The notes under the pieces are model-generated. The model did not search any database. It was not told where the DNA came from and saw only the letters and a list, made by a program, of their open reading frames with translations. This document shows, piece by piece, positions 546 through 27,778 of a stretch of 27,778 bases of DNA. Numbering within the stretch: position 1 is the stretch's first letter; each line of letters begins with the position of its first letter. Position numbers and translations under genes: made by a program. Origin of the DNA: a virus (taxonomy: Duplodnaviria; Heunggongvirae; Uroviricota; Caudoviricetes); IMG/VR virus record IMGVR_UViG_2802429234_000007, positions 1-27,778 of that record; one strand, written 5' to 3'.

Positions 546-569
546 TAAAAAAGCCCGCATTATGCGGGC
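546..569 (-). terminator. Rho-independent terminator at the end of the tail operon
   Basis: Minus strand reads GCCCGC-loop-GCGGGC followed by TTTTTT, 13 nt after the stop of the spike gene at 582. Confidence 0.6.
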
Positions 570-581
570 GTGTGGTCATGG

Positions 582-2285
582 TCAGGCAATTATATTCTGG
601 TACTTGCTCCGGGTCTGCCCGGCTTTCGTCGCCGTCTGGGTGAACGCGTCGGCATTAGTTGGCGTCCCAACGGTGGGGTGCGAATGGCTCGCGCATTGCT
701 GTGCCAGTTCTGCCAGTAAATCAATGGTATCCAACATCATGGTCAGGGCGTTGATACTCTCACTGCCAATATGGACAGTTGCCCCCATGACCTGCTGACC
801 GCCAGCGGCCACTGATTTACGCAGTGCGGCAATTTTCTCTGTCAGGCTTTCGCCAACCTCCACGGCTACAGCACCGCCCACTTTAGTGGACTGCTGTCCT
901 GCTATGTCCGTTTCTTCGTTTCCTTCAATACTGGCCAGCCTGTTACCTTTCACCGCCTGGCTATAATCACCGGCACTTACCTGCTGGATGGCTCCGGCCA
1001 GCAATGTGGTGGTTCCCAGTACCGTGGTTTTATCCGTGGCTTTCACCGTGGTTTCACGGCTGACCAGTTCGCGCTGTTCCGTATCGGCTTTTACGGTTCG
1101 CGCCATCGATGTTTCACTGATGGTCTGATCGGTCTGTCTTACCCAGTCTCCTGCCTGAGTCACCCGCTGGGAAACTTCTTCCCGCTGCTGCTGCAATTGC
1201 TCACCGGGTTTAACGTCCGGCAGGCTGGTACCATCCGGCAGCGTCTGCCTGATAAAGGGTTTATCCGGTCTGCCTCCCGTGAATGCAACCTCAACCAGCG
1301 TCCCTTCTGGCGGAAACTGAAACATACCTGAATCATTCCCGGCCATTGGCACCGGCAGCGGCACCGCTGAGTAAACAGGCGTCTGATTGTCCGGGTTTCC
1401 GTCTGCGTCAAGCAGCTGAACGTCCACGGCGTAACGTGGCCGGAAGGGATCGGCAAAATTACCGCTTTTTACCGGCTCTGAATGCGCCACGACTCTGGCC
1501 ATCTTTGGCAAATGAAGCCCGGATGCCAGTTCCGGGTAATGGCTTTCAATCTGCCGTTGTGCTGGTGTTTTCTGCAAAGGTTTACCCGTTGCGCGGTTTC
1601 TCGGCGTCCATGTGATCGCCATCGTGTCATTAGTCAGGTGAACTTTAGTCACGCGTTCACCGTTCATCTCCCCCCCTGGCCGCATAGTCTGGATCATTGG
1701 TAATGTCACAGAGTTACCACCAGCAGCCCCCTGGCTGAACTCTGAAGGGATTTCTACGGAACGACCGGCAAACAATGATTTTTCTGCGCCGCCGACGTAA
1801 AGCGAACCATCAGGCAACTGGTACCAGATGTAATCCTGGATACTGAACGCCCTGCCCAGATTGTTCAGCAACTGATAGCCGGTACCGTTATGGGTAAAAT
1901 GTGGGATAGGGGTATCGCTGTACTCTGCATCAGGCACACTGACCGTGATCCCGCTGTTTTCTTCCAGCCAGCTGGCAACCTCGCGTAAAGTTGGATGTTG
2001 AAACGAACATGGCCACATCCTTTCAAACACACCTACCAGTTCACGAATGAACAGACGCTGAAAACCGTTTTCAGCGGGCTGCGATCGCTCCACATACCCC
2101 GTAAACCAGCGCAAAAGCAGCTCGGTATACCCCACATCCAGCCGCACCAGTTTTCCGGTGTAATCGGTTGTTGTCTCTGCGGTGATGAAGCCCCGGCCGC
2201 AGCTGTTCAGCTCCAGTACCAGGCTGGCATCCACGAGGTGAACTTCATTCGTTGAAAGGTAAAGGCGTTTTACTGGTTTCATCAT
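582..2285 (-). CDS. Baseplate central spike protein (gpV/VgrG-like OB-fold) with ~270-aa N-terminal extension and C-terminal HSH apex
   Basis: Motif FPPEGTLVEVAFTGGRPDKPFIRQ matches the gpV/VgrG OB-fold signature (GxxVxVxFxxGDPDxPxI type); C-terminal ASHSHP resembles iron-binding spike apex; last gene of tail operon. Confidence 0.55.
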   Translation of the reverse strand: MMKPVKRLYLSTNEVHLVDASLVLELNSCGRGFITAETTTDYTGKLVRLDVGYTELLLRWFTGYVERSQPAENGFQRLFIRELVGVFERMWPCSFQHPTLREVASWLEENSGITVSVPDAEYSDTPIPHFTHNGTGYQLLNNLGRAFSIQDYIWYQLPDGSLYVGGAEKSLFAGRSVEIPSEFSQGAAGGNSVTLPMIQTMRPGGEMNGERVTKVHLTNDTMAITWTPRNRATGKPLQKTPAQRQIESHYPELASGLHLPKMARVVAHSEPVKSGNFADPFRPRYAVDVQLLDADGNPDNQTPVYSAVPLPVPMAGNDSGMFQFPPEGTLVEVAFTGGRPDKPFIRQTLPDGTSLPDVKPGEQLQQQREEVSQRVTQAGDWVRQTDQTISETSMARTVKADTEQRELVSRETTVKATDKTTVLGTTTLLAGAIQQVSAGDYSQAVKGNRLASIEGNEETDIAGQQSTKVGGAVAVEVGESLTEKIAALRKSVAAGGQQVMGATVHIGSESINALTMMLDTIDLLAELAQQCASHSHPTVGTPTNADAFTQTATKAGQTRSKYQNIIA

Positions 2286-2830
2286 TAACCCAAAGCATCA
2301 TTGACGGGCTTCAGCACCTTGCGTTCAAACCACGTCAGTTTTTCTTCATCCTCTCCGGCAGACTGGCCACCGGACTGTCCCGCACTACCGGCAGTCTGTT
2401 TTTTTGCGGTCGTCTTACCTGTTGCCCTGGCCTCTCGCTTTTCCTGCACGCTGATATGTTCCGCCAGTGTGAATGTCACCAGCCAGGACATTTTCCCGTC
2501 CTGCTGGGGCGCATCCAGCATTCCGCTGAACGTTGCTTCACGAAAATTAACTGCACGGGCAACTTCATGCGCCACGCGGTACTTCTGACGATTACCACTG
2601 GCATCGGTAGCACTGGCCAGCTCAAAAATACGCTTCAGTATTTCAGGCTGTTTAAAAGGTATTTCACCGCTAATCCGCAGTTCCTTTCCCTTTGCTCCCT
2701 GCTCTGATTTTGTTGTGGCGCTGGTCTGGCCGGACTGATCTTTATCCTGAAACTGCTGTGAAACGGTCACCCGCATGTTTTTCAGCTGGATGGCCTCGCC
2801 ATTAAGCGCCAGTGTCGGGATCGAAGTCAT
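2285..2830 (-). CDS. Hypothetical protein (181 aa), tail-module position, function unknown
   Basis: ORF with AAGGGA RBS 7 nt before ATG; stop overlaps spike start; no family recognised by eye. Confidence 0.4.
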   Translation of the reverse strand: MTSIPTLALNGEAIQLKNMRVTVSQQFQDKDQSGQTSATTKSEQGAKGKELRISGEIPFKQPEILKRIFELASATDASGNRQKYRVAHEVARAVNFREATFSGMLDAPQQDGKMSWLVTFTLAEHISVQEKREARATGKTTAKKQTAGSAGQSGGQSAGEDEEKLTWFERKVLKPVNDALG

Positions 2831-3527
2831 GAATCATTCCCTTTATTCCATCAAGATTATCGCCAACCAGCATCATGGCAGCGGTGTAAACGGCAGACTG
2901 CTGCGGAATGTCCCTCACCAGTTCCAGTAACGTGGTGCCGGTGTCTCCGCTGGCAGTAAAAACCCACGCCCTGGCACTTTTCCCCTGTAAATCATTCAGG
3001 CCGCTGGCCACATCACTGATAAGCTGGTCACGCAGCTGCGTGAACTCGCCCAGCTGTTTTTTCAGCCCTTCGATATCAAACCCGGCACCCGCCGCTTTTT
3101 GTGCCTTGCTGATTGCCGCAGCAGATAACGCAGCCCTGGTGGTTGGTACAGACAGTGGAATGGACGCAGGTAACGCTGCGGCGGCTTTCGCAGGGATCTG
3201 CATCTTTTCAATAGCCAGCGCAGCGGCGGATTGCGCCAGCCGTTTGACCTGCGTGAATGCCGGGGCGGGGAAAATTTCGACCAGGTTATTCAGGCTGGCC
3301 ATAAAGTTTTCCTGCGTCTGTCCGGTGACCATCATAATCACCACGTCCGCATTTCCCCCTATTCCGGCCAGGCGTTCAGCAAGATAGCGAACAGCATTAA
3401 CCGGGCTGAGATATGCCCCGTTCGCTGTCTGCTGTCCCAGCCCATAAATCCACGGATGCGCAGGGGCGATCGAACAGTTCAGCGCAGCAACAGAATCTGT
3501 GAAGGCCAGACGTGCTTCACGCCACAT
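2802..3527 (-). CDS. Hypothetical Ala-rich protein (~241 aa), tail-module position, function unknown
   Basis: ORF; probable start at MWREARLAF preceded by GGAGGTG RBS; overlaps Tfa stop; no family recognised by eye. Confidence 0.4.
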   Translation of the reverse strand: MWREARLAFTDSVAALNCSIAPAHPWIYGLGQQTANGAYLSPVNAVRYLAERLAGIGGNADVVIMMVTGQTQENFMASLNNLVEIFPAPAFTQVKRLAQSAAALAIEKMQIPAKAAAALPASIPLSVPTTRAALSAAAISKAQKAAGAGFDIEGLKKQLGEFTQLRDQLISDVASGLNDLQGKSARAWVFTASGDTGTTLLELVRDIPQQSAVYTAAMMLVGDNLDGIKGMIHDFDPDTGA

Positions 3528-4104
3528 TTCCAGGCACCTCCGGCCACACAATTTCCGGAGCATCTTCCGGTTGAATACGGTTCAATAAAACCCGGAATTT
3601 TTTCCATGCAGTAAGTAGAAGTACTTCTTCTTCAGTCGCAATGTCTAAATCAACGGCATCCTGCAACGTGGCAATGGCGTCATTGGCCTGTTTAAGCAGG
3701 CTTTTCTTTTCGGCGTCTGCCTCGCTGACTAATGCAATTCGCATGGCCTCCGCATCATCCACCCACGCCTTACCATTCCATTTTTGCCAGGCATTAGCTG
3801 GTGCTAACGTGGTTGTCCTTTCCGGATAAGCGCCTGGCTCGGTGATCACCAGTTCATTACCGTTTTCTGTATCAAACACAACCTCACCACGGTGATCCTC
3901 ACGGGAAATCCATCTTTGCTTCTCTGAATCAAAAATCGCCACAAACCCCGCTTTGATTGCCGGTGGCTTTATCGTGGTGCAGTTAGCTGGCAGTCCGGTA
4001 TGCGCAGGAATAAAAGCATCACCCGAACCAATAAATTCATTCGTATCGGAACGCAGGTTATAAACAGTAACTGTTTGATCGGTTTCACTCATTTTAAAAG
4101 TCAT
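3517..4104 (-). CDS. Tail fiber assembly protein (Tfa / P2 gpG-like chaperone)
   Basis: 195 aa immediately downstream of the fiber gene with ATGA-type overlap; C-terminal EEEVLLLTAWKKFRVLLNRI typical of Tfa family. Confidence 0.7.
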   Translation of the reverse strand: MTFKMSETDQTVTVYNLRSDTNEFIGSGDAFIPAHTGLPANCTTIKPPAIKAGFVAIFDSEKQRWISREDHRGEVVFDTENGNELVITEPGAYPERTTTLAPANAWQKWNGKAWVDDAEAMRIALVSEADAEKKSLLKQANDAIATLQDAVDLDIATEEEVLLLTAWKKFRVLLNRIQPEDAPEIVWPEVPGNVA

Positions 4105-5678
4105 TATGCGAGTCTCACTATGTAGTTAAATGCAATATTCTTAACTGTCGTTTCTGCGTTGCCCGACGCGGCGACGGTAATGGTGTGACTGTGTGCGCCT
4201 ATTGCTACGGTATGAAAGTGAGCTCCAATTCCTACAGAATGGCTATGTGCGCCAATCCCTACAATATGAGCATGGTTGCCAGCCAAATCCGTATTACCAG
4301 TTGTTACGTTATCGCCGCCCTGACCTCTATTGATATCTCCGTTTTGAGTGGCCTGCCCCTTAACATATGTATGAGTATGTGCACCAGTTGTATCGGTTGT
4401 TTTGGTTCCGTAATCAAATGTGCTCACAGCTCTAGTGCCGTAGTCAAAGGATGATGTTGACTTCGTCCCCAGATCGGTACTGAATGCACTAGCGGTGTGG
4501 GCATGGGATTTATTGCCATCATCTTCATAGGACAAAACTGCACGGCCATCAGGTTTTCCTTTGATCGTCTGGCGGCGCATATCAGGAAGAACACCCGATG
4601 GGTATGCAATAGCCAGTCGCTGGTAAGCCACTGGATCAAACACCTGCCCCTGCATGATTGCGTGACCCGCTGGTGGAATATCAGTCGGCCAAGGAAGTGG
4701 TACTCCAACCGGCACAACATCGCTAATGCTTAAGACCGCCAGCTCACCCAGCCCAAGATTTTTTCTGGCTTCCGCCTTGTCATTGATATCGGTAAGGTTT
4801 GCATCCTTACGCAAAAAATCGCTGCTGGCCTGTTGATCGCTCAGACTGCCTTTTGGCCTTAAATCCGTGATGTTGCCATCCACATCAATGCTGGCCACCG
4901 CAAATACAAAATGCTGAATACCGTTCTGAACATAATCAGTCAGATTTTCTACAACCGTGACTTTACTCTGTACACTCCAGACACAGCTCAGAATCCCTGT
5001 CCAGCACACATCCAGCCAGACTTTTACCGACTTTGTCGTCACTGTAATATCCTGATTCGCATCCAGTGACACACGCAGTCCAGCCACATACCCCGTGCCT
5101 TTCGTGACATAAAACTGATTGCCGGTTTTGGCTACCAGATACCCGTTACCAAAAAACGCCGCCGCGCCATAAATATCTGTATTTTCCAGACGCTGGCGCT
5201 CATCCATTCCGGCCAAACGTGCAGTAAAATCAATCTGCCAGGTTTCAGCGGGCGTATTAATCCCAGTTTCTGTTTGTGCACCGTTGTACTCCATCAGAAA
5301 TGAGCGGGTCAGCACGTTCCCCTGTTGCCCTTCTCTTGTTTTCAGTTTCTGCTGTGATGGTGCATGGACAATCATTGCCAGCGTACCGCTGGCCTTATTG
5401 AGCAAACCAATCCAGTTAAAACTGAAATCCCCCACATCTGCGCCCAGCACTACGGAATAGACCACCCTGTTTTCATCCACCACACCGGTACGGGTAACAG
5501 CTTGCCGGTGAACAATCTGTGCTGTCGGGGGCAACCCTTCATTGCGGTCAACAGGTGTATCCGGGTTTAAATCCGGCACACTGGCAAAAACAAATTCGTC
5601 CAGTAGTACCGGTTCACCCGTTGCACCCTGCTGTGCTTTCCAGTTTTCAAACGCCTGTGTGATGGCTGTCTGTGACAT
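4104..5678 (-). CDS. Tail fiber protein with C-terminal HxH repeat tip
   Basis: 524 aa after baseplate I-like gene; C-terminus [36 protein letters not shown] (tandem GIGAHxH units). Confidence 0.75.
4173..4280 (-). repeat. Short tandem coding repeats encoding GIGAH-x-H units in the fiber tip
   Basis: Four near-identical ~8-10 codon units visible in protein and DNA. Confidence 0.6.
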
Positions 5679-10474: not shown

Positions 10475-10673
10475 TTTTTAACGCCTCCAGTTTATCTTCC
10501 AGCGCTCTGGCTGAATCACTGGCAATGCCCTGCATTACTTTTCGCGATTCATTACCGGCCACCTGCGCCGCTGTATTGATCGCCAGCTCTAAGCTGTCAC
10601 GCCGCCAGTCAGCGGTCAGCCAGCCCCAGACAAACGCCAGCGCCACCACAACCAGCCACTGCCCGCTGCTCAT
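10335..10673 (-). CDS. i-spanin (Rz-like)
   Basis: 112 aa with N-terminal TM helix (WLVVVALAFVWGWL) and charged helical periplasmic domain; start overlaps endolysin stop. Confidence 0.65.
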   Translation of the reverse strand: MSSGQWLVVVALAFVWGWLTADWRRDSLELAINTAAQVAGNESRKVMQGIASDSARALEDKLEALKNVAPREIRTEILKPVFTNHCLSDEFVSMYNSAAAGTERALSGKPEN

Positions 10674-11014
10674 CAGCGCACCCCGTTATGTTCCAGGCTG
10701 AAATGATTACCATCAGGTCTGGATTTGAAGCGTCCGCCCCAGGAACCACCCAGTGATTCCCAGTATTCCCCCAGTGGCAGATAATCTTCTGTACGGGTTT
10801 TGTACTGACCGTTCACGAACAGATTGAAATCCACCGCCAGCCGCTGGGTGTGCAGGCTGTTAGAAATGCCGCTGCCTTTCTTCGCATTCAGCGCGGCCTG
10901 TTCTGGTGTACGGTAAGCCTCACCGAACGTCAGTCTGTAGCCATGTTCTTCTGCCCAGTGGATCAGACTGGCCACCATGACTGTGAATAATTGCTGTTTT
11001 TCACTCAGGGTCAT
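10673..11014 (-). CDS. Endolysin, peptidase M15-type (L-Ala-D-Glu peptidase-like)
   Basis: ~113 aa from MTLSEKQ; zinc-ligand-like pattern SLHTQRLAVDF ... DGNHFSLEH; sits between holin and spanins. Confidence 0.7.
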   Translation of the reverse strand: MTLSEKQQLFTVMVASLIHWAEEHGYRLTFGEAYRTPEQAALNAKKGSGISNSLHTQRLAVDFNLFVNGQYKTRTEDYLPLGEYWESLGGSWGGRFKSRPDGNHFSLEHNGVR

Positions 11015-11303
11015 TTGTCTTGCTCCCGTTCTGCTTTCCCGCTGCACGTCTGCGCAGCCACACTTCCACCGCCTGATAACCGGCAATCCCCAGCGCCGCC
11101 CCCAGCCCCTGAATGGCCAGCGGGCTGGCATCCGGGATCTGAATTAGTACCGCCCCGGCCACCACTGAAACCAGACTGCCCAGGATCACGCGACCGGCAA
11201 ACAGGCGCGGCGTGATTGGGTCATTACTGGTCAGCACATTGCCGATGGCAATCAGTGCGCCAATGATCAGCAGTGAATAAAGACTCTTTTCATGCTCCTG
11301 CAT
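11001..11303 (-). CDS. Holin (multi-TM small membrane protein with charged C-terminus)
   Basis: 100 aa, two to three hydrophobic segments, C-terminal RRRAAGKQNGSKTNDPE; immediately upstream of endolysin. Confidence 0.65.
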   Translation of the reverse strand: MQEHEKSLYSLLIIGALIAIGNVLTSNDPITPRLFAGRVILGSLVSVVAGAVLIQIPDASPLAIQGLGAALGIAGYQAVEVWLRRRAAGKQNGSKTNDPE

Positions 11304-11312
11304 CCCTGCCCC

Positions 11313-11768
11313 TTATCCGATCAGGTTTTCTGTGGCTTCCGCTTCCAGATACGGCACACCGTTGATGTTGACGAATTTCGGACTGGTCACGAAATATTTG
11401 ATTTTGTGCGTGGTCACGCCGCCCCCTTTCGGATCAATATCCAGCAGGTTGCTGACCTGCAATTTATTGCCGAACGTCTCCACCTTCATTTCTTCGCTAC
11501 TGGCTTTGGCATAGAAAAGAAAATCAAGTGGGGGAAGCCCACGCCATGAACCCGCTGCGCGGGCTTTGGCTGTCAGCACCTGAAGTGTTTTTGAACTGAC
11601 TTCAATTTCCCCTTCGGCGGCAACATCGCCGTCTACATACCCATCAGGGACGCCACGCGTCTGGGCGGCAGCGCTGTTATCCGTAATATCGAGCGTGATT
11701 TTCTCGATATGGATCAGATCGCCGTCCATATAGGTGTCAAACGACATACCCGAAATACGTTTGGTCAT
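11313..11768 (-). CDS. Putative tail tube protein
   Basis: 151 aa directly after putative sheath and before chaperone/TMP; assignment by position and size. Confidence 0.5.
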   Translation of the reverse strand: MTKRISGMSFDTYMDGDLIHIEKITLDITDNSAAAQTRGVPDGYVDGDVAAEGEIEVSSKTLQVLTAKARAAGSWRGLPPLDFLFYAKASSEEMKVETFGNKLQVSNLLDIDPKGGGVTTHKIKYFVTSPKFVNINGVPYLEAEATENLIG

Positions 11769-12892
11769 GCTGTGGCCTCCAGACTGGCATCCAGTAACAG
11801 ACTGATGGTGATTTGCAGCGGCACTTCCCAGGTGCGCACCACAATGTAAATATCCACCGCCTTTTTGTTCTTCCAGACAATGGTCACATCACTATCCTGC
11901 GGCGGCTTCACCTCTCCCGGAAATGACACACCATTAATGCTGGCTGCAGTGGACATTTCACGCAGTGGACGGGCGAACAGTGTCTGATGTGCGGCGATAC
12001 TTCCCGGCGTGCTGTTCAGCGAGCGATCTGCGATTTTACTGATAGCCAGCAGACGAACACGGCGGGCCGCTTTATCCGCAACGCGCAGGGTTTCAATCGA
12101 CTGATAATCGCCGCCCTCAACATCCAGCGTGCGGCCATCTGCCCAGTAAAAACCGTCATAATCCGGGTACCACATCGGCACACTGAAACGCTGTGCTTCA
12201 AGCGCCTGAAGTGTGGCCAGTTCCAGCACTTCTCCGGTACCATCAACCGGCATTTCATCACTGCCCAGATTCATCAGAGCACCGGTTTTAACCCGCGCCG
12301 GACTGTCAGCAATGGTTACCGCACGGCTACACAGGCGACCAGCCAGCACGCCCGGTTCATTTCCCCACAAGCGGGGAACCAGCTGCACCGCTTTTTCTGC
12401 AATACCATCCTGAAGGGTGGCCATGCGTACCAGATAATCCGCCTGGGCTTCTTCATCCTGCATTCCCTGTGCGGCCAGGATGAACCACACCCAGCGGCCA
12501 TACTTTGAAATCAGGGTGGTTCGTAACGTCACGGCCTGATTTACCTGCGCTTTAGCGGTCACATCGTCAGACAGCACCACGCCTTCCACAGAGCACACCA
12601 CCTGCGCGGCCAGAACCGCTTTCACCCAAGCATCTGCCTCCGCATCAGCTGGCAGGACGTGAATGAACCCCCACCAGTTCTGGCCAGCGTTCGCCAGCGC
12701 AGCCAGAACATCATTTTTCAGCGGGCTGGCTTCCTCGCCCAGCAGTGAATCAAAATCACTCTGGGCATTCACCGCCAGCGTTTTCCCCACATTTTTGGTA
12801 CCCGTACCGATAAACAGCAGTGTGCGTTCCACCTCATTGGTTTCACCCAACAGCTGATTTACCTGGTTTACGGTCACAATTGGCCAGGTCAT
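11765..12892 (-). CDS. Putative tail sheath protein
   Basis: 375 aa between tail completion S-like gene and tube; assignment by position and size, sequence not confidently matched. Confidence 0.5.
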   Translation of the reverse strand: MTWPIVTVNQVNQLLGETNEVERTLLFIGTGTKNVGKTLAVNAQSDFDSLLGEEASPLKNDVLAALANAGQNWWGFIHVLPADAEADAWVKAVLAAQVVCSVEGVVLSDDVTAKAQVNQAVTLRTTLISKYGRWVWFILAAQGMQDEEAQADYLVRMATLQDGIAEKAVQLVPRLWGNEPGVLAGRLCSRAVTIADSPARVKTGALMNLGSDEMPVDGTGEVLELATLQALEAQRFSVPMWYPDYDGFYWADGRTLDVEGGDYQSIETLRVADKAARRVRLLAISKIADRSLNSTPGSIAAHQTLFARPLREMSTAASINGVSFPGEVKPPQDSDVTIVWKNKKAVDIYIVVRTWEVPLQITISLLLDASLEATA

Positions 12893-24829: not shown

Positions 24830-25018
24830 TTACTTTTCACTGTTCCACGCAAGCCAATCTACAAACACATGTTCTTTCGGTTTGCTTTTAGGTTTGATTT
24901 TGAGTTTGCCGGTGTGTACCCAGTAACGTCCCGTGCGCAGTTTTATTTCAACCCTGTCGCAAAAAGTTTTCAGAGGTACCCACCTGCTTTCTGAATGTGT
25001 TGCAGCTTTAGTTTGCAT
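24830..25018 (-). CDS. apl: Apl/Cox-like excisionase-repressor (small HTH protein)
   Basis: 62 aa basic protein, first gene of the operon divergent from cI; GGAGG RBS upstream. Confidence 0.55.
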   Translation of the reverse strand: MQTKAATHSESRWVPLKTFCDRVEIKLRTGRYWVHTGKLKIKPKSKPKEHVFVDWLAWNSEK

Positions 25019-25039
25019 ACGGCAAAATTCCTCCTTCGT

Positions 25040-25065
25040 TTGTCACTAATGAGCGTCGGTGACAA
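25040..25065. promoter_or_regulatory. Perfect dyad TTGTCAC-N12-GTGACAA in the cI/apl switch region (candidate operator)
   Basis: 7-bp inverted repeat with 12-bp spacer just upstream of the apl RBS. Confidence 0.45.
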
Positions 25066-25169
25066 TAGTTGTTAATAATCTACAAACGGCAATTATCAGT
25101 ATCTACATTCGAAACAATGCAGAGACTATTTTTAAAATTGTCGTTTGTCAATAATTGCGAACTACAAAC

Positions 25170-25745
25170 ATGACAACTTACAACATCAAGACAGGTGCAC
25201 GCGAAGCAATCGAAAGGGTGTGTGAGGCCTATGGTTTTACATCCAGAATGCAGTTAGCAAATTATCTTGGAATGTCTCCAAGTGCTTTAAGTACACGTAT
25301 CATGCGTGACAACTTTCCTGCTGATTTAGTGCTACTTTGTGCTCTAGAAACAGGAGCTTCTATCTACTGGCTAACCACTGGTGATGGCGTTAGATTTAAT
25401 CAGGTGGCAAGTGATACCACTCGAATCTCAGCCTATAAAATCGAAGGGTCTGATATGGTTCGCCAAGCATCCGTAATTTTCGATAAGACAATACTCCCCA
25501 ACTACAAAGGTGAACTTCAAATAATCAGTGATAGTTCAGTAAGATTTTTCGTAGATATCGCTGATTACCCTGTTACGGACGGTAAGTTCCTTCTTGAGTA
25601 TTCTGGTACGAAAAGCATCAAAGAATTGACGTTACTTCCTGGTAACAAATTGCGGATTGACTGGGGAAAATATCCAGTTGATTGCGACGTATCTGATGTG
25701 CAATTGATTGGGAAGGTTGTGGCCACATACTTAGTGAGTGAGTAA
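25170..25745 (+). CDS. cI: Immunity repressor, phage 186 CI-type (N-terminal HTH, ~191 aa)
   Basis: ERVCEAYGFTSRMQLANYLGMSPSALSTR...CALETGASIYWLTTGDG resembles 186 CI; upstream of int with 1-nt overlap; the ORF-track start at 25155 is TTG, ATG at 25170 preferred. Confidence 0.7.
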   Translation: MTTYNIKTGAREAIERVCEAYGFTSRMQLANYLGMSPSALSTRIMRDNFPADLVLLCALETGASIYWLTTGDGVRFNQVASDTTRISAYKIEGSDMVRQASVIFDKTILPNYKGELQIISDSSVRFFVDIADYPVTDGKFLLEYSGTKSIKELTLLPGNKLRIDWGKYPVDCDVSDVQLIGKVVATYLVSE

Positions 25746-26758
25746 TGGCAGTTCGGAAAATCGAAAGCGGTGAATGGTTGTGCGATCTTCGCCCTAATGG
25801 GGTGAAAGGTAAGCGTATTCGTAAAAAATTCGCCACGAAAGGTGAAGCACTGGCATATGAAAAATATATCGCCAGCGAAATGGAAGGCAAACCCTGGCTG
25901 GGTGAGAAGCAAGATAATCGACGCTTATCAGATCTGATTGAGCAGTGGCATGATCTATATGGTCGAACATTAGCAGATGCCGACCGCATGATGTCGAAAT
26001 TGAAAGGTATTTGTGCTGGTATGGGAAATCCGATTGCAGCACAAATCACAGCGGCGGATTTCAGCCAATACAGAGAAGGTCGCTTAAAGGGTGAAATTCC
26101 GGATATAAATGGACGTTGTATGCCGATACAACCACGGACAGTAAATCATGAGCAACGCTATCTATCTGCCGTATTTGGTACACTAAAAAAACTAGGCCAT
26201 TGGTCGCTTCCAAATCCATTGGCAGGAATTCCAACCTTTAAAGTTGATGAAAAAATGGTTTCTTTTCTTTATTCAGAAGAAATCAAAACTCTTTTACAAT
26301 ATTTATCCGAATCTAATAGCCCGCACGTTCTCATCATCACTAAGATTTGCCTTGCTACCGGTGCAAGGTGGAGTGAAGCGGAAAATCTAGAAGGCTCTCA
26401 AGTTACGCCATACCGTATCACTTACAAAAATACGAAAAGTAGAAAGGTACGTTCTATACCTATCTCAAAAGAGCTTTATAACGAGATACCAAAAAAACGA
26501 GGCCAGTTGTTTACCCCGTGCCGTAAAACTTTCGAGCGTACTGTAGCTAAAGCGGGGATTGAACTGCCTGAAGGCCAGTGTACACATGTATTACGACATA
26601 CATTTGCCAGCCACTTTATGATGAATGGCGGAAACATACTTGTTCTTAAAGAGATTTTAGGCCATTCAGATATAAAAATGACTATGATCTATGCTCACTT
26701 TGCGCCAACGCATCTTGAAGATGTAATAACAAAAAATCCTTTATCATTAATAATTTAG
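25745..26758 (+). CDS. int: Tyrosine integrase (P2/186 Int-type)
   Basis: 337 aa; N-terminus MAVRKIESGEWLCDLRPNGVKGKRIRKKF matches P2 Int pattern; C-terminal HxLRHTFA ... MIYAHF catalytic region. Confidence 0.9.
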   Translation: MAVRKIESGEWLCDLRPNGVKGKRIRKKFATKGEALAYEKYIASEMEGKPWLGEKQDNRRLSDLIEQWHDLYGRTLADADRMMSKLKGICAGMGNPIAAQITAADFSQYREGRLKGEIPDINGRCMPIQPRTVNHEQRYLSAVFGTLKKLGHWSLPNPLAGIPTFKVDEKMVSFLYSEEIKTLLQYLSESNSPHVLIITKICLATGARWSEAENLEGSQVTPYRITYKNTKSRKVRSIPISKELYNEIPKKRGQLFTPCRKTFERTVAKAGIELPEGQCTHVLRHTFASHFMMNGGNILVLKEILGHSDIKMTMIYAHFAPTHLEDVITKNPLSLII

Positions 26759-26764
26759 AGAAAA

Positions 26765-27778
26765 ATGAACCTTACAATCAATCAATGCATCGTTTTATTT
26801 AACATTTTATTTGTGGTTGTTTACATGGGTTATTTATTCAAGATAAATGCATTCAAGATGAATGCTGAACCTCTTACGCATCAACCATTATTCAAAGCCG
26901 CACTGGCAATTCCAATAATTAGTTTTTTTCTGCTCGGATTTGTTGCATGGAATGGTCACAATGTTCAAATCGATACGGAAGGATTTAATAATTTCCTAAA
27001 CATTAGTAAACTTCCTTTAGCTGTTTTATCTTTATCGATTCCACTGGGAGTAGTTGTCAATAATATTCATCGAACAATACAAACAGATAAACAAATCAAA
27101 GAAGCAGAAAAGAAAAACAAAGTGGATTTTTTCTATACCCATAGAAAAAACACTATAGAAGCATTACAACACCTTGAATCTTTAGACATTCCTTTGATAA
27201 AAAAGAACGCAAAATTAGAATTTGAAAATTGTTATTCTACATATCGTAAATGCTATCCTTATGCTTCAACTACTAATAATAATTTTGATGCTTCCAAGGA
27301 CTACATACAAAATGCAGAATTAATTTGGTGCCAACTAGTTGAACTATTTAAAAAAGAAGAAATTAATGACTATACAGAGTTATACACCCATATACATAGC
27401 ATTGAAAAACTATTAGAATTATTGCACAACCTTTATGGACTAAAGCGTTTAGATATTGAAAAACTCTATCAGTGCTCAACCCACGGTGAAGATGAATATA
27501 TTTTATTCTTAAAAACAAAATTTTCGGATGAATTGGATATAAAAAAATATCTACAATCATACTGGCACTTTCATTTAAAAATGGTTGAGATACTTGAATA
27601 TAATTTCACCACTGACTTTGTGCTACTTATGAAGGATATAATAAGTTATTCAATCAATAATCGTGATAGAAAATACCCCTTATTTCAATATCACACTACA
27701 ATTGACGCAAGCGTTCCTCAGTTCATTAAGTTAAAAATCAGCAAAAGAGATCCACAAAATGTCCATGCAGAGTGTTAG
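26765..27778 (+). CDS. AT-rich membrane-anchored protein of unknown function (337 aa), candidate lysogenic-conversion or defence cargo
   Basis: Complete ORF starting 6 nt after the int stop; three N-terminal hydrophobic helices then a ~235-aa Lys/Glu-rich helical domain; much lower GC than the rest of the phage. Confidence 0.6.
   Translation: MNLTINQCIVLFNILFVVVYMGYLFKINAFKMNAEPLTHQPLFKAALAIPIISFFLLGFVAWNGHNVQIDTEGFNNFLNISKLPLAVLSLSIPLGVVVNNIHRTIQTDKQIKEAEKKNKVDFFYTHRKNTIEALQHLESLDIPLIKKNAKLEFENCYSTYRKCYPYASTTNNNFDASKDYIQNAELIWCQLVELFKKEEINDYTELYTHIHSIEKLLELLHNLYGLKRLDIEKLYQCSTHGEDEYILFLKTKFSDELDIKKYLQSYWHFHLKMVEILEYNFTTDFVLLMKDIISYSINNRDRKYPLFQYHTTIDASVPQFIKLKISKRDPQNVHAEC

Follow-up and report, generated by a model that had tools for sequence, protein, structure and literature searches.

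Introduction

The baseplate hub and central spike of phages P2 and Mu are made as two proteins, gpD and gpV in P2 and gp44 and gp45 in Mu, whose genes lie in different operons. A HxH motif close to a spike's C-terminus is generally taken as the sign of an iron-binding, built-in apex that takes the place of a separate PAAR-type tip protein (bioRxiv 10.1101/2023.02.25.529910; PMC12407873). In Pseudoalteromonas phage ACA1, gp48 has been assigned as the counterpart of gpD ('cell puncturing device mounting domain') and gp49 as that of gpV (PMC10612066, Viruses 2023, Table S1), both proteins were found in virions by mass spectrometry, and the same study states that the gpD and gpV homologues of HP1 are fused in a single polypeptide (PMC10612066); a hub-spike fusion in HP1-type phages is therefore already reported and known. 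This paper alone turned up in our search for literature on HP1 orf35 or on VgrG-like descriptions of it. Here we analyse a 27,778-nucleotide (nt) stretch of DNA (hereafter the window; positions 1 to 27,778 of IMG/VR record IMGVR_UViG_2802429234_000007), which is an HP1-like prophage (Peduoviridae, ESSI-2-type), and propose that a single polypeptide, the product of its minus-strand open reading frame (ORF) at 582..2285, makes up the entire central puncturing device of an HP1-like myovirus tail, a reading to which we give a probability of about 90%.

Results

The ORF belongs to the HP1 orf35 family

The ORF at 582..2285 is complete, runs from an ATG start to a TGA stop on the minus strand and encodes 567 amino acids (aa); an earlier reading of the DNA from its letters alone (hereafter the original prediction) had proposed a spike protein here without giving a strand, and the frame that it picked out is real. 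We take it not to be a chance reading frame because its whole length is covered by a match to PHROG 2258 ('baseplate protein'; E=4e-275, aa 2-567 versus profile positions 1-544 of 544), and because it has many homologues (n=1231 at E<=1e-5 among 8000 candidates scored in a word-indexed search, and 722 related cluster representatives at E<=1e-3 in an exhaustive search of 50%-identity clusters), and has a terminator directly downstream. A second profile, PHROG 4011 (315 residues), aligns with aa 243-565 only. The intrinsic terminator lies at 547..569 on the minus strand, with a hairpin of seven G+C-rich pairs (553-569) and a T-run directly after the stop codon, so that the hub-spike gene closes its operon and the terminator marks the end of the tail operon; K139 carries an annotated terminator at the equivalent place. 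At the other end, the start codon shares sequence with the stop codon of the orf34 homologue (2285..2830), which lies upstream.

The encoded protein is an ordinary representative of the HP1 orf35 family (UniProt P51739; K139 orf39, ESSI-2, phiO18P, F108), with which it shares full-length homology, terminal operon position and fused architecture, and from which it shows no material difference. Identity to the orthologues in phage genomes, measured with tblastn, is 97.7% for Escherichia phage ESSI2_ev015, 79% for Cronobacter phage ESSI-2, 40% for HP1 orf35 and 34% for K139 orf39. The orthologue is the last gene of the tail operon in both HP1 and K139, and the order fibre, fibre-assembly, orf33, orf34 and finally hub-spike is the same in the window, HP1 and K139. 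Homology, synteny, an AlphaFold2 model and fold searches together identify the product of 582..2285 as a hub-spike-tip protein orthologous to HP1 orf35 and K139 orf39. Most database copies of the family are named 'hypothetical protein'; the relatives P0087 and P0112 are called 'baseplate assembly protein V' by NCBI.

The predicted structure combines a hub, a spike and a tip in one chain

An AlphaFold2 model of the single chain (a monomer), built on an alignment of 82 sequences, has a mean predicted local distance difference test (pLDDT) score of 92.2, with no segment below 50. Residues 1-226 (1608..2285; this and the following domains are all on the minus strand) form a mixed alpha/beta domain with the fold of gp27, Mu gp44 and P2 gpD, both in the model and in fold searches, and we read this domain as a predicted compact baseplate hub. 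The original prediction had left about 270 residues ahead of the OB-fold unassigned: a long N-terminal region is indeed there, its extent is ~260 aa, of which ~226 aa make up the discrete domain, and structure prediction together with fold searches now points to a hub in place of the blank. The hub is followed at aa 227-260 (1506..1607) by a linker, TPRNRATGKPLQKTPAQRQ, and two short helices (241-255), delimited from the model and from the junction comparison given below; the stand-alone spikes of relatives align from ~aa 243, where the spike module begins.

The next domain, aa 261-384 (1134..1505), is an OB-fold of the gp5/gpV/VgrG type, assigned from Pfam, a VgrG profile match and fold matches. 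It contains FPPEGTLVEVAFTGGRPDKPFIRQ at aa 324-347 (window 1245-1316), where the original prediction had put this motif, and its assignment of the central region to the gpV/VgrG OB-fold is borne out, as this region aligns with VgrG at the profile level and folds like Mu gp45 and P2 gpV in Foldseek. The Pfam match is to Phage_base_V (PF04717) over aa 309-345, with 22.8 bits against a cut-off of 23.8 (E=1.2e-4), a cut-off that the relative P0170 exceeds (25.7 bits), and the family profile aligns with the VgrG OB-fold and helix at E=3.7e-7.

Residues 385-510 (756..1133) are predicted to form an intertwined triple beta-helix like that of T4 gp5C, on the strength of a phmmer match, repeated octads and weak Pfam hits. 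At the structural level, the OB-fold is followed by a beta-helix. Residues 413-508 match the beta-helix chains of T4 gp5 at E ~6e-7 (phmmer), Gp5_C (PF06715) and Gp5_trimer_C (PF22178) are sub-threshold (18.4 versus 20.4 and 18.7 versus 30.9 bits, respectively), and aa 409-504 hold ~12 octads (xxxxVxGx) with V/I and G at fixed positions, which is the T4 gp5C signature. In the monomer model, aa 385-505 are extended with pLDDT 86-92, the conformation that a single strand would have in an intertwined trimeric beta-helix. The chain ends in a tip module, aa 511-567 (585..755), that consists of a helix (513-533), HSH (534-536), a Pro-containing loop and a second helix (545-563), all modelled with pLDDT 92-96.

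Foldseek searches of the PDB return whole-chain VgrG-type fusions as the top 15 matches (E 2.5e-19 to 1e-13), led by the Algoriphagus contractile injection system (CIS) protein Algo8 (2.5e-19) and followed by VgrGs of Bacteroides and Pseudomonas and by Pvc8 and Afp8. A second tier is made up of isolated hubs (Mu gp44, the MuSo2 43-kDa protein, and the E217 and pyocin R2 hubs) and a third of isolated spikes (Mu gp45, the R2 pyocin spike and P2 gpV, target TM-score 0.76). Named matches in BFVD, which holds predicted viral structures, include 'Phage protein D', '43 kDa tail protein' and 'Late control GPD'. Fold comparison thus recovers the hub fold in aa 1-226, and the architecture of the whole modelled protein is that of a VgrG with a built-in tip.

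Fused and split forms of the same modules

Relatives of the protein come in three sizes: full-length copies of ~530-610 aa, many copies of ~300-330 aa that match aa ~243-566 only, and fewer of ~226-244 aa that match aa 2-228 only; in the 82-sequence alignment, the N module is covered by 29 sequences and the C module by 75. The hub and spike are adjacent, separate genes in Vibrio phage PV94 (gp46 and gp47, 228 and 254 aa) and in ACA1 (gp48 and gp49, 234 and 317 aa), and both split pairs follow an orf34 homologue, as in the window. The PV94 hub ends in KITWM and a stop codon, as compared to AITWTPRN in the window protein, and the PV94 spike starts with MDVNTIKRIIFRLFPEL, as compared to QRQIESHYPEL; because the hub end and the spike start align there, we place the fusion junction in the 17-residue linker, aa 227-243. 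The modules of PV94 and ACA1 are homologous to those of the window protein and syntenic with them, and differ in being carried by two overlapping genes where the window has a 17-aa linker. Having set the ORF against P2 gpV, whose length of 211 aa it gave correctly, the original prediction had considered a hub-spike fusion as one of two options, and this option is now supported by the AlphaFold2 model, the fold searches and the split-gene relatives.

The hub and spike genes overlap by 10 nt in PV94 (L003 5977-7418) and by 28 nt in ACA1 (L004 5950-7580), with the spike in the -1 frame, and the spike frame is open upstream of its annotated start for 17 codons in PV94 and 37 codons in ACA1. A programmed -1 frameshift joining the two genes was considered and dropped: the split spike genes have their own ATG, with a GGAGG Shine-Dalgarno sequence before the PV94 start, and the overlap holds no canonical slippery heptamer. 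Ordinary translational coupling of hub and spike is likely in these phages, and an occasional fused product may be made.

The tip carries a conserved HxH motif between two predicted helices

The ASHSHP motif singled out in the original prediction is present at aa 532-537 (HSH at window 678-686); it is not the end of the protein, as had been stated, since 30 residues follow it. Conservation is high in the aligned sequences, with H534 found in 66 of 72, H536 in 65 of 72 and P542 in 61 of 73, and a conserved HxH near the spike C-terminus, the feature by which a gpV-type apex is recognized (bioRxiv 10.1101/2023.02.25.529910), is thus found here. The window protein has no match to Apex (PF18946) at E<=1, and the relative P0170 has a sub-threshold one (17.5 versus 20.8 bits). 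Neither is the beta-structured apex fold of gpV matched, as the model has helices on both sides of the HxH. The conserved hydrophobic residues of helix 513-533 (513, 517, 520, 524, 527 and 531) follow a 4-3 heptad spacing, with H534 at the next core position, and the helix after the HxH is conserved and amphipathic, with hydrophobic residues at 548, 555, 558, 562 and 565. The apex of P2 gpV comprises residues 191-211, is beta-structured and extends 12 residues beyond the second histidine, whereas the arrangement predicted here is helix-HxH-helix, with 31 residues after the HxH.

These features lead us to suggest, tentatively and at somewhat less than even odds, that HP1-type spikes, fused or stand-alone, have a distinct apex in which the beta-helix would give way to a short coiled coil of three chains, the final core 'd' position of which is taken by the first HxH histidine, with the C-terminal amphipathic helix folded back to give a six-helix-bundle tip in place of a gpV beta cone or a PAAR cap. 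The coiled coil is proposed because of the monomer model and the sequence periodicity. The predicted helix-HxH-helix tip is the sole mildly new point of this analysis.

Prophage context and neighbouring genes

Apart from the hub-spike ORF, the window holds head, tail, lysis, replication, repressor and integrase genes of the HP1/P2 type. Its minus strand carries homologues of P2-type gpL, gpR and gpS, and tail genes for an HP1 Orf24-type tube protein, a peptidase-type endolysin, the tape measure, a DUF2590 protein, a Baseplate_J protein, a Tail_P2_I-like protein, the tail fibre and a fibre-assembly protein; the fibre-assembly gene is followed by homologues of HP1 orf33 and orf34 and finally by the hub-spike ORF. 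Replication protein A, CII, the CI repressor and the integrase are encoded in the right part. The region is carried by 53 of 5426 complete E. coli genomes; in the 8 records listed, the features under the match are annotated 'hypothetical protein', except for one 'baseplate complex protein' in 2 of them.

The orf34 homologue (2285..2830, minus strand, 181 aa) matches Pfam HP1_ORF34, 'baseplate complex protein', is syntenic in HP1, K139, PV94 and ACA1, and is a likely partner of the hub-spike protein in the central baseplate complex. The orf33 homologue (2802..3563, minus strand, 253 aa) keeps its synteny with orf34 and orf35. Homologues of orf33 and orf34 are always syntenic with the hub-spike gene, and these proteins may complete an unusually small hub or may supply a gpU-like tube initiator. 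A 375-aa ORF at 11765-12892 presumably encodes the sheath, an assignment made from its synteny with HP1 orf23, immediately upstream of the orf24 homologue.

The 524-aa tail fibre (window 4104-5678, minus strand) ends in a C-terminal run of HxH repeats that resembles the iron-binding HxH repeats of fibre tips; it has a P2/HP1-type N-terminus (Phage_tail_fib) and a Collar domain in the middle of the protein, and therefore looks like a mosaic. The lysis genes, including a Peptidase_M15_4-type endolysin (10673-11131, minus strand), lie between the tube gene and the tape-measure region, and the HP1 lysis genes (holin, lys and spanin, after orf24) occupy the equivalent position. Similarity to copies of this prophage in complete E. 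coli genomes begins only at ~246-265 of the window, and the left prophage/host junction (att site) is probably near this point, ~300 nt past the hub-spike terminator. At the other end, G+C content drops to 38-42% over 25000-27778, a part that takes in the CI repressor, the integrase (25745-26758) and also a 337-aa ORF (26765-27778) that has no Pfam or PADLOC match and hits phrog_17460 (function unknown) only; possibly this ORF is a moron, or cargo, carried at the end of the prophage.

Discussion

The protein encoded at 582..2285 is the functional equivalent of P2 gpD plus gpV, of Mu gp44 plus gp45, of T4 gp27 plus gp5 plus gp5.4, and of VgrG plus PAAR. It has the same folds as the P2 and Mu proteins and, by our reading, would fill the same roles of hub ring, OB-fold adaptor, beta-helix and HxH tip. 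It differs from them in being one chain, in having a hub of ~226 aa as compared to 380-390 aa (387 aa in P2 gpD), and in having a longer, T4 gp5C-like beta-helix. With VgrG1, Afp8, Pvc8 and Algo8 it shares the one-chain order of a gp27-like hub, a gp5 OB-fold and lastly a beta-helix; the VgrG-type proteins have a blunt end on which a separate PAAR protein sits as the tip, whereas the window protein carries its own HxH tip. It works like a VgrG but falls outside the VgrG sequence families. In cyanophage Pam3, the hub gp19 (229 aa) and the spike gp20 (PDB 7YFZ) are separate proteins with a distant, fold-level similarity only.

A trimer is expected, as in all known hubs and spikes, and the axial baseplate complex would consist of three copies of the chain. 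In the arrangement that we propose, the hub domains (aa 1-226) would make a pseudo-hexameric ring at the baseplate centre, as the link between the trimeric spike and the hexameric tube; this ring would dock on the tube and tape-measure end and on the wedge proteins (a possibly gpW-like DUF2590 protein and the gpJ-like and gpI-like proteins), and would nucleate wedge assembly. The OB-folds (aa 261-384) would sit beneath the hub and plug the ring from below, and the chains would then intertwine as a gp5C-like beta-helix (aa ~385-510), with the three HxH motifs caging a metal ion at the tip, putatively Fe by analogy with P2 gpV. Sheath contraction would drive the spike, its tip stabilised by the metal, through the outer membrane like a rigid drill bit, after which the spike would dissociate.

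Several points weigh against this assignment. The hub family is undetectable by sequence, as aa 1-260 give no Pfam match at E<=1 and none in NCBIfam or the PDB (phmmer/hmmsearch), seven stand-alone homologues of the N domain give no meaningful Pfam match, and all Pfam matches of the spike are below the curated cut-offs. Local hhalign comparisons are insignificant, both for the N-domain profile versus the single P2 gpD sequence (probability 0.5%) and for the C-module profile versus the single gpV sequence (probability <1%), and the case for hub and spike homology therefore comes from comparing folds and from published HHpred results, in which the ACA1 homologue gives profile-profile matches to a hub at ~10% identity (PMC10612066). 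The beta-helix region (aa 385-510) and the metal site were assessed from a monomer model, from which the trimer, its intertwining and the metal are extrapolated. For HP1-type baseplates we found neither an experimental structure nor genetics, and PDB sequence searches returned nothing for either the orf34 homologue or the presumed sheath ORF. Finally, the hub is ~100-150 aa shorter than Mu gp44 and P2 gpD, and some hub functions may therefore lie in orf33 or orf34.

The size of the N-terminal domain (~226 aa, versus 325-390 aa in classical hubs) and the lack of a Pfam or PDB sequence match over aa 1-260 also fit a protein in which a gpV-like spike carries a non-hub accessory domain for receptor binding, enzymatic activity or cargo, with the hub itself encoded elsewhere, in orf33 or orf34. 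No other gpD-like gene was found among the scanned tail genes. With the fold comparison recovering a hub in aa 1-226, we judge this arrangement very unlikely. Less probable again is that the protein is a VgrG of a type VI secretion system (T6SS), an extracellular contractile injection system (eCIS) or a tailocin and not a virion protein. Its best whole-chain structural matches are indeed VgrG-type proteins of T6SS and eCIS, and weak matches to NCBIfam VgrG models are found, but the scores of these (TIGR01646 and TIGR03361, 16.4 and 15.0 bits) are far below the cut-offs of 121.8 and 186.35, a protein of Escherichia phage ESSI2_ev015 is 97.7% identical, and the gene lies in a complete prophage whose terminase, portal, capsid, lysis, replication, repressor and integrase genes are present without T6SS genes.

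The least probable explanation is that the long ORF is an artefact, in which adjacent hub and spike genes were joined by a frameshift from sequencing or assembly or by a recent mutation in a decaying prophage. Split versions of both modules with overlapping frames do exist, in PV94 and ACA1, but many independent genomes of Escherichia, Salmonella, Citrobacter, Enterobacter and Cronobacter have a fused form of 558-568 aa, the fusion is also found in sequenced phages, namely HP1, HP2, K139, phiO18P, F108, phi3 and ESSI-2, and the linker is an in-frame 17-aa segment with no junction scar. The conserved fused form effectively refutes this explanation, and the assignment of 582..2285 to a one-chain puncturing device is the reading that we retain.

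For a specialist nothing here is surprising, and the gain lies in annotation and in a modest hypothesis about the tip. The protein can safely be named a baseplate hub/central spike fusion protein, the equivalent of gpD-gpV. The natural split variants are available for comparison, and structural studies could reasonably be aimed at the minimal hub and at the helical HxH tip that is predicted; if the proposed tip is correct, then together with the minimal 226-aa hub it would make this the most condensed single-chain hub-spike-tip device known. More generally, a real phage can combine in one working chain the hub, spike and tip that T4 makes as separate proteins and that P2 and T6SS have either as separate proteins or fused in part.
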